Shown here: positions 3,759-22,823 of the stretch, in pieces
How the letters are laid out: each line of letters starts with the position of its first letter
How positions within the stretch are numbered: position 1 is the stretch's first letter
Source: Bacteroidota bacterium
GTDB lineage: Bacteria > Bacteroidota > Bacteroidia > Bacteroidales > Lentimicrobiaceae
Assembly: GCA_009773515.1 (NCBI GenBank)
Contig: WSXX01000023.1
Coordinates: 3,971 to 67,970 of the forward strand
DNA: 64,000 nucleotides
Direction: 5' to 3'
The notes under the pieces: model-generated
What the model was told of the DNA's origin: nothing
What the model saw: only the letters and a program-made list of their open reading frames with translations
The model's database searches: none
Translations under genes and position numbers: made by a program

Positions 3759-4075
3759 GTCCTTCGTTCCGATAGCTATCGGAACCGCTACCAATGACAG
3801 ATTGTTCGTTTTATCTCCTTAATCAGGATTACATTGATTTAAAAAATCAATTGTTTAGTCCTGCGACTCCGCTCAGGATGACATTGTAAATGATTGATTG
3901 TGAATGTATTAAAAATAAACAACGCTAACCTAACACGAATGTCACACTGAGCGAAGTCGAAGTGTTTTGACGCTTGATTTAACTGCCATCTCCGCATTAA
4001 GCTCAATTTTTTTTTGAGTGCAAACTCAGGATGACTGTCAGTCTGAGCGGTTCCGATAGCTATCGGAACGAAGAC
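3759..4075. repeat. Cluster of five REP-like units (BIME-like); two carry the palindrome GTTCCGATAGCTATCGGAAC
   Basis: Units matching TGTCANNCTGAGCGRAGTCGAAG(G/T/A) at 3759-3799(-), 3858-3883(-), 3940-3964(+), 4024-4035(partial -), 4036-4075(+); palindromes at 3766-3785 and 4050-4069. Confidence 0.85.
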
Positions 4076-5951: not shown

Positions 5952-5989
5952 TTCCTTCGTTCCGATGGCCTATCGGAACGAAGTGTTTT
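5952..5989. repeat. Collapsed REP pair: two REP tails joined by a palindrome variant
   Basis: TCCTTCG-TTCCGATGGCCTATCGGAA-CGAAGTGTTTT; 12-bp stem with 5-nt loop; both tails match REP ends elsewhere in the window. Confidence 0.65.
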
Positions 5990-19489: not shown

Positions 19490-21001
19490 TTACTTCAAAT
19501 GCAGCCAATCAGGCGCAATATCTGCATCAATGCCAAACACCACATCACCCCAATAATACATCATCAACATAATAACCACAGCACCAACAAGATTTAGAAA
19601 CAGTCCAGATCGGGCCATTTGAGCCACGCTAATCCGCGATGTTCCAAATATAATTGCATTCGGGGGTGTTGCCACAGGCAGCATAAAAGCCATTGATGCT
19701 GACATTGTTGCGGGTATCATCAGTAAAAGCGGATTCAAATTTGAACTGATGGCAACTCCAGCCACAATTGGCAGGATCATTTCGGTGGTTGCGGTGTTGG
19801 ATGTCAGTTCAGTCAGAAAAGTCATTACCAGGGCAACAACCAGAATAATCAGCATCGGGTGCAATGCGGTTAATCCGGCAAGATTTTCACCAAACCACAA
19901 TGAAAGTCCTGATTCTTTTATTCCAGTAGCAAGTGCGAACCCTCCACCAAACAGGAGAAGAATCTGCCAGGGAAGACCAGACGCAGTTTTCCAGTCGAGC
20001 AGCGTTTTACCTTTGTGGTTACGCGAAGGAATCAGGAAAAGCACTACGGCCATAAAAATCGCAACCGTTCCATCGTTTATAAAAGTACTTTGAGGAAAAA
20101 TACGTGACCATCCGGGAATGACTAAATTGCCAAAATCAAGATCAACCCTGAGCAACCAGAGCAATGCGAGAAGAAGAAAGATCCAGGCAACCACTTTCTG
20201 CTCAAAATCAGCCTTACCCATCTCTTTTAATTGCAGATGGAAAGTGTTTTTGTCAATAGCCACCCATTCACCTTTGGTTGGCCTGAAAACAAAAAACAGG
20301 AAAGCCCATGTAATAGCAAAAAGAATCAGCGAAACAGGAAAGGCAAAAATCAGCCAGCTTGAGAATGATATTTCAGGAGCCAAAGGGAAATATATATGAA
20401 AAATACGAATAAATGAAAGATTTGGCGGGGTTCCCACCAGGGTTGCCATGCCTCCGATCGAAGCACTGTAAGCAATGCCGAGCAACAATCCAACACTGAA
20501 TTTGCTGTTTCCTCCATTGTTCATAAAATCGTCAAGCTGCTTAATGATTGACATTGCAATTGGCAGCATCATCATTACAGTCGCGGTGTTTGAAATCCAC
20601 ATTGAGAGGAAAAAAGAAGAAATCATAAATCCCAGGAGAATGCGCGCCGGGCTGACACCCGTAACACTAAGTATATTGAGCGCAATTCGCCTGTGCAGAT
20701 TCCAGCGTTCCATGGCCAAAGCCACCATAAAACCACCCATAAACAGAAAGATCACATCATTAAAGTATGCAGATGATACATCTTTGCCGTTCATGATGCC
20801 AAACAGCGGAAAAAGGGCAACCGGGAGTAAGGACGTTACAGCAAGTGGCACCGCTTCGGTGATCCACCAAACAGCCATCAGCAGTGCAACACAGAAAGTA
20901 TAGGTAACCTGAGGTTTACCGGGAACAAAATCCGCAAACAGCAAAATAAAAAGAATGACTAAAGGAGTAATCAGGAAACTAATAATTTGCTTGAAATTCA
21001 T
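19490..21001 (-). CDS. SLC13/DASS sodium:dicarboxylate-type symporter
   Basis: WISNTAT, GTPPN, ELTSNTAT, MLPVATPPNA motifs; multiple TM helices; ATG at 21001. Confidence 0.9.
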   Translation of the reverse strand: MNFKQIISFLITPLVILFILLFADFVPGKPQVTYTFCVALLMAVWWITEAVPLAVTSLLPVALFPLFGIMNGKDVSSAYFNDVIFLFMGGFMVALAMERWNLHRRIALNILSVTGVSPARILLGFMISSFFLSMWISNTATVMMMLPIAMSIIKQLDDFMNNGGNSKFSVGLLLGIAYSASIGGMATLVGTPPNLSFIRIFHIYFPLAPEISFSSWLIFAFPVSLILFAITWAFLFFVFRPTKGEWVAIDKNTFHLQLKEMGKADFEQKVVAWIFLLLALLWLLRVDLDFGNLVIPGWSRIFPQSTFINDGTVAIFMAVVLFLIPSRNHKGKTLLDWKTASGLPWQILLLFGGGFALATGIKESGLSLWFGENLAGLTALHPMLIILVVALVMTFLTELTSNTATTEMILPIVAGVAISSNLNPLLLMIPATMSASMAFMLPVATPPNAIIFGTSRISVAQMARSGLFLNLVGAVVIMLMMYYWGDVVFGIDADIAPDWLHLK

Positions 21002-21164
21002 AGGCTGCGGATTAGTCTCAGTCAATTCTGAATAACAAACTTACAGGAAATAATTATAATTTACAAGCGGAAAGGGAATATGATTATGTGTTTGACTGAC
21101 AACTTTATAGGAGTGCTATATGAGTCCAATAAATTACTTTCAGAGATAATATAGCAAAATACTA

Positions 21165-21411
21165 TGGCAAGTATTTGAACCTTCAGTTTATATCAAAAAA
21201 AAAGCCCCCTTCTGGGAGCTTTAAGCGGACCGGACGGTCTCGTCAATCAAATAATTGACGAGAGAACCCGTCTCGTCACCAGTGACGAGATGACAGGCAC
21301 GTATTCTAACCTTCAGTTTAGATCAAAAAAAAGCCCCCTTCTGGGAGCTATAGCGGACCGGACGGTCTCGTCAATAAATAATTAACGAGATGACAGGCAC
21401 GTATTCTAACC
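21165..21411 (-). repeat. Tandem tRNA-Asp-derived pseudo-copies with hairpin insertions, each followed by a terminator-like hairpin
   Basis: Copies at 21353-21411 and 21225-21311 share GGTTAGAATACGTGCCTGTCA and CCGTCCGGTCCGC with the tRNA; remnant near 21165-21188. Confidence 0.88.
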
Positions 21412-21675
21412 TAAATCCCCTTTACTTTGAGAAAGGTATGAACTTGCCAGAATTTCAATTGAACGACGATTCAGTTTCTTGAGCCGTTTCTCTTCAATTA
21501 ATGCCTCTCGTTTGGTTTCAAACTCTTTAAGATAAACCAACTTCCAGGGTCCTTTACCAGCCGTATAATGGCTCAACTCATTATTGTGTTCCCACAAACG
21601 ATGTACGGGGTCATTTGAAAAACCCTTATAGTAAACGTCAGAAATTGCAGAATAGATGATGTAAGTATAATACAT
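21406..21675 (-). CDS. Small stand-alone GIY-YIG nuclease
   Basis: YTYIIYS..YYKGFSNDPVHRLWEHN..YT..GPWKLVYLKEF..ALIEEKRLK; ATG at 21675. Confidence 0.85.
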   Translation of the reverse strand: MYYTYIIYSAISDVYYKGFSNDPVHRLWEHNNELSHYTAGKGPWKLVYLKEFETKREALIEEKRLKKLNRRSIEILASSYLSQSKGDLG

Positions 21676-21678
21676 AAT

Positions 21679-21707
21679 AAAAAAACCCCACATAACTGTG
21701 AGGCTTT
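21679..21707 (-). terminator. Terminator-like hairpin between tRNA-Asp and the GIY-YIG ATG
   Basis: AAAGCCTCACAGTTATGTGGGGTTTTTTT on the minus strand. Confidence 0.6.
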
Positions 21708-21710
21708 AAG

Positions 21711-21784
21711 CGGACCGGACGGGACTCGAACCCGCGACCACATGCGTGACAGGCACGTATTCTAACCAACTGAACTACCGATCC
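21711..21784 (-). tRNA. tRNA-Asp(GTC), CCA not encoded
   Basis: GGATCGG/CCGGTCC acceptor stem, D-loop GGTTAGA, anticodon loop CTGTCAC, T-loop TTCGAGT. Confidence 0.95.
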
Positions 21785-21818
21785 ATTTTTTTAAAGAACT
21801 TATTCTCGATTGAGACTG

Positions 21819-21826
21819 CAAATATA
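21819..21826 (-). promoter_or_regulatory. -7 box of the tRNA-Asp promoter
   Basis: TATATTTG on the minus strand; tRNA-Asn has an equivalent TAATTTTG at 51787-51794. Confidence 0.55.
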
Positions 21827-21926
21827 GAGACTTTTTTAAAACAACAAACAATTGATGAAAATTTTTTTTCAGTCGATAGTTTGAGCAGAATTAAGCCGGA
21901 AAGTGCCAGTTAAAAACTGTTACCGG

Positions 21927-22823
21927 CTACTTCCCATCCACAATAATTGAAGCCGGTTTTTTAGCATCCATAAAAATCAGCTTGGCATTTGGTGAAGTGG
22001 CAATGGCTTTGATCATTTCGTATTGAAGCTGCTTATCGCTGAGGCCGGTACTCAGAATGGTCTGGTAGTCAGCAATTCCTTGAGCTTCAACCCTTTTTCG
22101 CTCGGCTTCCTGCTTTTCTTTTTGCAATACAAAGGTCATTTTCTGAGCTTCCTGTTCGGCATTGATTTTTGATTCAATGGTTGTCTTTACCGATTCAGGC
22201 AGGGTAATATTTCTGACCAGAAGTTGCTCCAGCTCAAGTCCACGGGCTTTAAAATCTGTTTCAATGGATTTAAAAATTCTGTCCTGAAACTCATCTCTCT
22301 TTGTTGAATAAAGCGCCACAGCATCATAATATACGGCATTGTCCCTGATTTTTGTGCGGCAAAGCGGCCTCACAATGGTATTTTTATAATCTGTTCCTAT
22401 TTCCTTAAGAATCCGGGGAGCTTCGGATGATGTTACTTTATAAAGAACGGTCAGATCAATCACCACCTCCAATCCATCGGCCGAAAGAACACGGATGGCA
22501 TCATCGCTGGCTTTGTCACCTTCATCATTTATGCCTGACATGGTATAATTTTGTGTCCGGATGTCAAAAGTGACCACTTCAACCAATGGGTTTATGATAT
22601 TCAACCCACTCTCAAGTGTCTTGCTGCTTACTTTTCCGAAAAGTTTCTGCACGCCAACCTGACCGGGTTCAATCTGATAAATTGCCGAAAAAATTACACC
22701 AGCCAGCACAAGCAGAACTCCGGCAATCTTAACAATCCCCAAATAAGGTTTCAGCGGAGTTTCAGCTTTAGCCAAAGCAAAACCAATAATAAGAAGTACA
22801 ATTCCAAACAAAATAGCTGCCAT
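21927..22823 (-). CDS. SPFH/prohibitin (band 7) family protein
   Basis: N-terminal TM pair, QIEPGQVGV..LFG, LVRNITLP, coiled coil KINAEQEAQKM. Confidence 0.9.
   Translation of the reverse strand: MAAILFGIVLLIIGFALAKAETPLKPYLGIVKIAGVLLVLAGVIFSAIYQIEPGQVGVQKLFGKVSSKTLESGLNIINPLVEVVTFDIRTQNYTMSGINDEGDKASDDAIRVLSADGLEVVIDLTVLYKVTSSEAPRILKEIGTDYKNTIVRPLCRTKIRDNAVYYDAVALYSTKRDEFQDRIFKSIETDFKARGLELEQLLVRNITLPESVKTTIESKINAEQEAQKMTFVLQKEKQEAERKRVEAQGIADYQTILSTGLSDKQLQYEMIKAIATSPNAKLIFMDAKKPASIIVDGK

Follow-up and report, generated by a model that had tools for sequence, protein, structure and literature searches.

This study analyzed a 64,000-nucleotide stretch of a Lentimicrobiaceae genome (Bacteroidota bacterium, order Bacteroidales; assembly GCA_009773515.1, contig WSXX01000023.1, positions 3,971 to 67,970 of the forward strand; hereafter, the window), in which two partial copies of a tRNA-Asp gene carry short palindromic hairpins in place of parts of the tRNA sequence. 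The results revealed that these copies belong to a cassette comprising a terminator, a gene encoding an 89-amino-acid GIY-YIG nuclease, and part of the host tRNA, with one arm replaced by the hairpin; the cassette lies directly 3' of an intact tRNA gene and has tRNA-homologous borders. Comparisons within this genome (G000) and with its relatives further revealed that the type of hairpin tracks the lineage of the nuclease and the genome, not the tRNA species. We consider it probable that a minimal GIY-YIG nuclease forms the core of a small cassette resident at tRNA genes, that the hairpins are the signature of this cassette, and that they most likely represent the hairpin recognized by this nuclease. 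The cassette is probably selfish DNA.

In copy 1 of the tRNA, two exact palindromes of the form TCTCGTCA-loop-TGACGAGA were identified, with a 4-nt loop in hairpin 1 and a 10-nt loop in hairpin 2. Read in tRNA sense, this copy comprises GGTTAGAATACGTGCCTGTCA, TCTCGTCACTGGTGACGAGA (hairpin), CGGGTTC, TCTCGTCAATTATTTGATTGACGAGA (hairpin), and CCGTCCGGTCCGC, and the native gene reads CGCATGTGGTCG and GAGTC at the two hairpin sites. The exact palindrome was present in none of 100 dinucleotide shuffles of the window. The original prediction for this DNA, made from its letters alone, had located both palindromes and the hairpin of copy 2, which has one arm mismatch, with exact coordinates (Table 1), and the CGGGTTC between the two hairpins is intact, as it had stated. 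It had further regarded copy 2 as a deletion product, and copy 2 indeed equals copy 1 minus the 27 nt (4 + 8 + 7 + 8) between direct TCTCGTCA arms; its loop matches that of the T-loop hairpin of copy 1, as fits such a deletion.

Folded as single-stranded DNA, copy 1 formed two hairpins and no cloverleaf (-18.3 kcal/mol, z = -3.7). ARAGORN and the Rfam 15 tRNA model called the intact tRNA-Asp alone, with only sub-threshold chance matches to the copies, and no family among the Rfam 15 covariance models reached its gathering score on the copies. The tRNA fold is lost in the copies, as had been predicted, and their tRNA homology is chopped into tracts of 21, 7, and 13 nt. The accompanying claim that a working 74-nt tRNA gene had been hit and destroyed had to be abandoned: the intact tRNA-Asp gene is untouched, and the hairpinned pieces are partial duplicates lacking tRNA positions 1-16. 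The original prediction drew no link between the hairpins and the adjacent nuclease gene; the hairpinned pieces form the 3' end of the GIY-YIG cassette. In tRNA sense, the locus reads tRNA-Asp, terminator, 89-codon open reading frame (ORF), copy 2, terminator, copy 1, terminator, and remnant, and the TAG stop codon of the nuclease ORF falls within the GGTTAG of copy 2. No integrase gene was found among the ORFs in 19490-22823, and the tRNA repeats are broken by the hairpins. No HUH/Y1 transposase gene lies beside the hairpins; the GIY-YIG gene is the sole adjacent ORF.

We compared this locus with those of other members of the genus. The closest relative, G013, possesses a 100% identical tRNA-Asp gene with the same flanks (an SPFH-family gene and a DASS-type permease gene), with the terminator GCTCCCAGAAGGGGGC directly behind the tRNA, then a spacer, then the remnant. 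A 485-bp segment (21225-21709) is present in G000 and missing from G013, and the two loci thus represent a filled and an empty site. Terminator A does not occur 3' of the tRNA at this empty site and sits after the last pseudo-copy in G007, which carries two complete cassette modules. The hairpin of terminator B' is the native terminator hairpin of the tRNA in G013, and terminator B differs from its G013 counterpart by a single base just before the hairpin.

A GIY-YIG gene was found 3' of tRNA-Asp at nine loci of the genus (G000, G001, G006, G007, G010, G011, G023, G045, and, with an intervening island, G017). A hairpinned tRNA-Asp fragment followed the ORF at all of these loci except that of G045, where the contig stops inside the ORF, whereas none of the 17 tRNA-Asp loci lacking the gene had such a fragment. 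At least one TCTCGTC..GACGAGA hairpin occurred in all 11 genomes with a close homolog of the nuclease (E <= 1e-20) and in 9 of the 28 genomes without one, the latter count being partly at the noise level of the relaxed pattern. The hairpin after tRNA position 37 (hairpin 1) was common to every tRNA-Asp cassette seen. Extra hairpins were found in the T-loop (hairpin 2) in G000, G007, and G011 and in the acceptor strand in G001 and G017; these are later gains. Two entries of the hairpin into one gene had been proposed originally. The T-loop hairpin stands as a lineage-specific second acquisition, absent from G023 and placed elsewhere in G001 and G017, but the hairpin following position 37 is no fresh insertion, having been inherited as a conserved part of the cassette in several families of the order. 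Arrays without an ORF, bearing the same arms, were located at tRNA-Gly (up to 4 units of 71 bp), tRNA-Arg, and tRNA-Thr (4 units of 126 bp).

The survey was extended to the order and beyond; related genomes are nonindependent samples, many loci stop at contig breaks, and hairpin counts rest on simple patterns. The exact hairpin was patchily distributed, occurring in 7 of 400 other genomes, several of them with multiple matches, and a reversed control pattern gave 0-1 matches per genome. Among the matches listed in a scan of species representatives, the hairpin was found in tRNA-Asp, tRNA-Ser, and other tRNA-like flanks of further Bacteroidia metagenome-assembled genomes (MAGs), and a GIY-YIG gene adjoined it in the tRNA-Asp cases. 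Homologs of the nuclease were present in 117 of 401 genomes of the order, often in tandem, with extremes of seven copies at a 336-bp period in G214 and eight copies in G066. We then analyzed 58 loci of the order picked by protein similarity alone. A tRNA gene lay directly upstream on the same strand at 41 of them (including Val, Asp, Asn, Pro, Met, Thr, Leu, Ile, and Lys), a 13-mer from the 3' part of that tRNA was repeated after the ORF at 31, a TCYCG...CGRGA hairpin interrupted the tRNA fragment at 35, and 21 were arranged in tandem. The replaced segment differed among the tRNAs: in the tRNA-Val cassette the entire 17-nt anticodon arm was swapped for a 19-nt hairpin, in the tRNA-Pro array the entire T-arm was swapped, and in the tRNA-Asn cassette the hairpin took only approximately 10 nt (the D-stem end, the 5' strand of the anticodon stem, and the first loop bases).

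Among 124 unique hairpins, the 5-bp base of the stem was TCCCG or TCTCG, and the 28 distal stems were always complementary. A stem of at least 7 bp was formed by 90 of the 124, compared with approximately 6% expected were only the base fixed. The stem base TCYCG/CGRGA is thus invariant, the distal stem covaries, and the loop varies freely. Paralogous cassettes of the genus, whose proteins share 30-40% identity, carry the hairpins TCCCGACT (tRNA-Val), TCCGCC (Met), and TCCCGA (Asn), and the close nuclease clade has the TCTCGTC hairpin at every associated tRNA species; the identity of the hairpin therefore tracks the nuclease lineage.

Within the 5.03-Mb genome G000, the exact hairpin occurs five times: twice at tRNA-Asp, once upstream of tRNA-Gly(CCC) on contig C38, and twice in tandem upstream of tRNA-Arg(CCT) on contig C58. 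In this whole-genome search, a check that the original prediction had suggested, each of the five was located in a partial tRNA copy adjacent to an intact tRNA gene. The bare 8-mer arm is not over-represented (70 observed versus approximately 135 expected genome-wide). In the Gly and Arg copies, the hairpin stands for ten bases, roughly tRNA positions 23-32. A BLAST search of all tRNAs against the genome revealed a hairpin in every near-adjacent partial tRNA copy. The sole hairpin-free partial copy (C57:16245-16292) is a perfect 48-nt direct repeat of the tRNA-Arg(ACG) 3' end located 7 kb from that gene, which is the usual signature of an integrated island. With the same arms at precise tRNA positions at three unlinked loci here and in many other genomes, the hairpins are not a product of drift, and their recurrence in many independent assemblies excludes misassembly.

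Table 1. Features of the tRNA-Asp locus, in window coordinates; tRNA positions are those of the intact gene.
Feature	Position	Strand	Basis
Intact tRNA-Asp(GTC), resident target or host gene	21710-21784	minus	ARAGORN; Rfam tRNA model, 65 bits
Terminator A, CCTCACAGTTATGTGGGG plus T-run, arrived with the cassette	21679-21707	minus	sequence; comparison with G013 and G007
Gene for 89-aa single-domain GIY-YIG nuclease	21406-21675	minus	ORF list; Pfam PF01541, E = 3e-15
Partial tRNA-Asp copy 2: positions 17-37, one hairpin, positions 62-74	21353-21411	minus	sequence; tRNA BLAST
Hairpin of copy 2, in tRNA sense TCTCGTTA-ATTATTTAT-TGACGAGA, one arm mismatch	21366-21390		fuzzy whole-genome search; fold
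Terminator B', GCTCCCAGAAGGGGGC plus T-run, 3' of copy 2	21325-21349	minus	sequence
Partial tRNA-Asp copy 1: positions 17-37, hairpin 1, 50-56, hairpin 2, 62-74	21225-21311	minus	sequence
Hairpin 1, in place of positions 38-49 (3' strand of anticodon stem and variable loop)	21271-21290		palindrome search
Hairpin 2, in place of T-loop positions 57-61	21238-21263		palindrome search
Terminator B, native tRNA-Asp terminator	21195-21221	minus	near-identical to the sequence right after the tRNA in G013
Degenerate remnant of positions 17-32, GGTTCAAATACTTGCC, end of array	21163-21182	minus	sequence; also at the empty site of G013

In the 89-amino-acid protein, the Pfam domain PF01541 spans residues 1-71 (E = 3e-15), and no other domain was found; a search against the NCBIfam profiles yielded no match. 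At this length, it has no linker or DNA-binding domain of the kind present in homing endonucleases of approximately 200-250 amino acids. The best PDB matches were the uncharacterized UPF0213 proteins 1ZG2 and 1YWL (E = 4e-7), and the phage and plasmid collections contained no relevant homolog of the nuclease. The closest known parallel is the Ssn family of site-specific single-stranded-DNA nucleases, represented by SsnA of Neisseria meningitidis, a 94-amino-acid single-domain GIY-YIG protein (Chenal et al. 2025, PMC11893778). Binding of SsnA to its hairpin repeat NTS requires single-stranded DNA, and cleavage takes place a few bases upstream of the repeat; RNA and duplex DNA are ignored. The protein requires both the sequence and the structure of the stem, and its residues Y6, Y17, and E64 are essential (PMC11893778). 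Homologs of Ssn have their own cognate hairpins flanking their genes, and the authors of that study likened the repeat-gene-repeat layout to an insertion sequence (PMC11893778).

The locus resembles this system in several respects, the likeness being one of features and not of alignment to SsnA. Both involve a single-domain GIY-YIG protein of approximately 90 amino acids whose gene lies beside 20-50-nt hairpin repeats; here, the 190 nt 3' of the ORF contain three hairpins, and the 5' side has only a terminator. By inspection, not alignment, Y5, Y16, and E62 are spaced by 11 and 46 residues, compared with 11 and 47 for Y6, Y17, and E64 of SsnA. Both also exhibit a conserved stem sequence and cognate hairpins that differ among homologs. 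The tRNA-Asp outline TGTCAT-CTCG...CGAG-A-C parallels that of NTS, CGTCAT-TCCCGCG...CGCGGGAAT-C (in outline, CGTCAT-TCCCG...CGGGAAT-C), and the GTCA of the TGTCAT flank derives from the anticodon and A37 of tRNA-Asp. Unlike those of the Ssn system, the present hairpins occupy fixed tRNA positions within partial tRNA copies. The cassette invariably follows a tRNA gene, immediately and in the same orientation, and multiplies in tandem, and each genome has 5-11 hairpins instead of hundreds.

By analogy with Ssn, the nuclease would bind its hairpin in single-stranded DNA and nick a few bases upstream, within the retained tRNA segment. The resulting ends, flanked by sequence homologous to the tRNA, could then recombine with a sister chromosome or an incoming one at an intact tRNA gene, and this recombination would copy the cassette and regenerate a working tRNA. 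Because the target would survive each event, cassettes could stack in tandem. The replacement of an arm, which cuts the homology between repeats to the 21-, 7-, and 13-nt tracts, should also make the cassette less prone to deletion. Secondary spread of the same hairpin within the genome would account for the second hairpin and for the Gly and Arg arrays that lack an ORF. We consider each of these single steps much less likely than the cassette reading as a whole.

Several observations weigh against this reading. A linked hairpin and gene are co-inherited, and their correlation alone is no proof of recognition. The published search string for the Ssn-related motif (SRM) is unmatched (hairpin 1, the best match, requires 2 substitutions on the sense strand, and the other hairpins require at least 3), the genome having 11 matches versus approximately 10 expected by chance. 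The nearest solved structures are the UPF0213 proteins, which are classed in CDD separately from Ssn. G022 and G051 have 11 and 6 hairpins, respectively, and no close nuclease gene in the assembly, and G013 and G009 retain hairpinned Arg or Gly copies and likewise have no close nuclease gene. The same hairpin also occurs at sites other than tRNA copies. The TCTCGTCA/TGACGAGA arms form the helix-45 tip of 23S rRNA in G010 (C78, L168 818-837), a helix for which seven species of the genus have seven different stems. In a Flavobacteriia MAG (JACFND010000051.1, L061, 6215-6234 and 6712-6731), they make up the helix-45 tip as well as that of helix 63. Rfam identified both regions as 23S rRNA. The same arms were also found in terminator stems and the tips of long palindromes of other Bacteroidota and in dispersed repeats. 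The rRNA helices and terminators have no flanking homology that could guide replacement, and a direct exchange of one hairpin for another therefore has to be considered.

In one form of such an exchange, the nuclease and its hairpin would constitute a novel form of DNA mobility, a hairpin-swapping system in which extrudable stem-loops (tRNA arms, 23S rRNA tips, and terminators) are replaced by the cassette hairpin, a reading that appears unlikely. The 20-nt palindrome might instead be mobile by itself, overwriting the tips or arms of hairpin-forming DNA independently of the nuclease and being visible in pseudo-tRNAs as sites where insertions are tolerated. This would accommodate the same arms replacing the helix-45 tip in G010 and both helix tips in the Flavobacteriia MAG, the terminator stems and long-palindrome tips built from them, the unrelated dispersed repeats of G022 and G051, neither of which has a close nuclease gene, the ORF-less Gly, Arg, and Thr arrays, and the extra hairpins at differing positions of the same pseudo-tRNA between species. 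We nevertheless regard an autonomous palindrome as rather unlikely: the association with the GIY-YIG gene at tRNA-Asp is perfect within the genus (9/9 versus 0/17), the hairpin type shifts with the nuclease paralog, the copy number is very low at 5-11 per genome, no other candidate enzyme was seen, and the recurrence of the position-37 hairpin in different families reflects inheritance with the cassette and not re-insertion.

A role at the RNA level, in which a tRNA-like RNA lacking an anticodon loop would either help to process or stabilize the nuclease mRNA as its 3' element or act as a decoy or antidote, seems quite improbable. The tRNA-Val cassettes and the eight-copy array of G066, in which a hairpin of nearly the same size replaces the anticodon arm and the T-arm and the 3' strand of the acceptor are kept, would suit such a role, as would the nearly full-length tRNA-Asn copy, in which only approximately 10 nt are replaced, the co-directional order of ORF, fragment, and terminator, and the variant TCTCGTCT...GGACGAGA of G006, G022, and G051, which would preserve a G-U pair. 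However, SsnA does not bind RNA (PMC11893778). The copies in the window lack tRNA positions 1-16 and can form neither an acceptor stem nor a cloverleaf, the upstream ORF-less arrays retain only 5' parts of the tRNA, the stem base is conserved in sequence beyond the need for pairing, and the same hairpin occurs in both orientations and in contexts that do not appear to be transcribed. We also considered that the copies are passive scars, namely tandem duplications or decayed att sites of islands, with chance palindromes kept for blocking repeat-mediated deletion. Tracts of at most 22 nt, which the interruption leaves, fall below the usual length for efficient RecA recombination, unequal crossing-over can expand and shrink arrays, and a plain island repeat exists at tRNA-Arg(ACG) in the same genome. 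However, independent origin cannot explain why three unlinked loci, and dozens of genomes, share identical 8-bp arms. No integrase gene is present, the tie to one nuclease family is constant, and the hairpin position is conserved across families. The recurrence data disfavor this explanation, which we judge very improbable.

The tRNA-resident nuclease cassette shares features with other known elements. Phage T4 SegB is a free-standing GIY-YIG homing endonuclease in a tRNA gene cluster, and fungal mitochondria have free-standing GIY-YIG genes that bring a replacement gene end with them and displace the original, as in Allomyces atp6. The present locus similarly has a GIY-YIG gene next to tRNA genes, with presence or absence at one site between close relatives (G000 versus G013), a functional host gene, and a displaced partial copy downstream. 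Homing endonucleases of the SegB/I-TevI type, however, have at least 200-250 amino acids and a DNA-binding domain, cut double-stranded DNA, destroy their target on insertion, and stay single-copy, whereas the cassette encodes a bare 89-amino-acid domain, forms arrays of up to eight units, includes a conserved hairpin in each unit, and, as proposed, would regenerate its target. Repetitive extragenic palindromic (REP)/REPIN-RAYT and IS200/IS605 systems also combine short hairpin repeats with a small neighboring enzyme that reads their sequence and structure as single-stranded DNA; these enzymes are HUH/Y1 transposases and not GIY-YIG nucleases, the systems have no tie to tRNA fragments, and REPs are extragenic and number hundreds per genome. 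The small dispersed repeats of Nostoc are reportedly 21-27-nt hairpin elements nested in other repeats or structured sequences, where their insertion displaces host sequence (Elhai et al. 2008). They differ from the present hairpins in being cyanobacterial and in having no tRNA pseudo-copy context. We know of no nuclease for these repeats. The intervening sequences of 23S rRNA at helix 25 and helix 45 are approximately 100 nt long, sporadic, and excised by RNase III. The rRNA hairpins described above resemble them as a sporadic foreign stem-loop in place of the helix-45 tip but are 20 nt long, of normal helix size, and identical to the hairpin of the tRNA cassette.

Minimal GIY-YIG proteins are among the commonest unexplained small bacterial genes. 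A phylogenomic survey of the GIY-YIG superfamily classed stand-alone minimal domains with Slx1 and mentioned no link to tRNA (PMC1564403), and a first biochemical function for one minimal branch, Ssn, was described only in 2025 (PMC11893778). The text of the latter paper contains no occurrence of "tRNA", "tandem", or "Bacteroid", and our literature search found no paper tying GIY-YIG genes to tRNA pseudo-copies. Judging from this locus and its relatives, minimal GIY-YIG proteins beyond Neisseria appear to have a concrete and widespread lifestyle as cassettes that inhabit tRNA genes without loss of tRNA function, accumulate in tandem, and bear a hairpin specific to their lineage. They provide testable pairs of nucleases and cognate hairpins, which could be useful as single-stranded-DNA tools, and such cassettes also account for many of the unusual pseudo-tRNA arrays and broken contig ends that assemblies of Bacteroidota contain. 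The possibility is also raised that the same hairpin overwrites rRNA helices; a hairpin-swapping system, if real, would remodel genes for structured RNAs, including ribosomal RNA, beyond parasitizing tRNA genes.

Other candidate explanations of the hairpins were examined and rejected. A cloning or assembly artifact was suggested by BsaI- and BsmBI-like sites at two junctions; these sites arise by coincidence from the flanking sequence, and dozens of independent assemblies show the same pattern. The hammerhead-like core in TGACGAGA is missing the required C before UGA. A CRISPR repeat, an integron attC site, and a tyrosine or serine recombinase core were rejected on account of the arm spacing of 4-13 nt and the absence of a recombinase gene. 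In the contexts inspected by eye, the junctions followed no target-site or microhomology rule, save for a C (or a G on the other side) beside the palindrome.

Side observations were made on related hairpins and loci. In G017, approximately 9 kb separates the intact tRNA-Asp from the nuclease gene and its hairpinned fragment on contig C62 (L162, L005); we read this segment as an inserted island, and the junction between tRNA and cassette may therefore itself be an integration site. A GC-rich hairpin, CCCGCC...GGCGGG, occupies the T-loop of some pseudo-tRNAs that also contain the main hairpin (tRNA-Arg copies L009/L010 of G006 and G022; L196 of G331), and a single fragment can therefore harbor hairpins of more than one family. 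Variant hairpins of G022 and G051, including TCTCGTCT..GGACGAGA, lie at the center of other dispersed repeats, in the context TATATTTCGG, hairpin, CCGAAATATA and in GGCAGTTGG arrays (L250-L263). In G000, the region downstream of tRNA-Gly near the contig end (C38:59600-60600) contains several other families of tandem and inverted repeats, namely CACGGATTA units and GGGGCGCAGCG palindromes.

The remaining two small stand-alone GIY-YIG genes of G000 (C15:53615-53833 and C66:31460-31675) have REP-like hairpin repeats on both sides, the repeat-gene-repeat layout described for ssnA. The gene on C66 is bordered by the same GAGCGGAGTCGAAGG repeat family as found in the window. Another palindrome, TTCCGATAGCTATCGGAA with the core CCGATAGCTATCGG, has 39 genomic occurrences, is nested in REP units, and lies at 3766-3785, 4050-4069, and 5958-5978 of the window. 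Similar hairpins, TCCCGAT...ATCGGGA, are found in GIY-YIG cassettes of other members of the order, and this palindrome may be the cognate hairpin of one of the other small nucleases.

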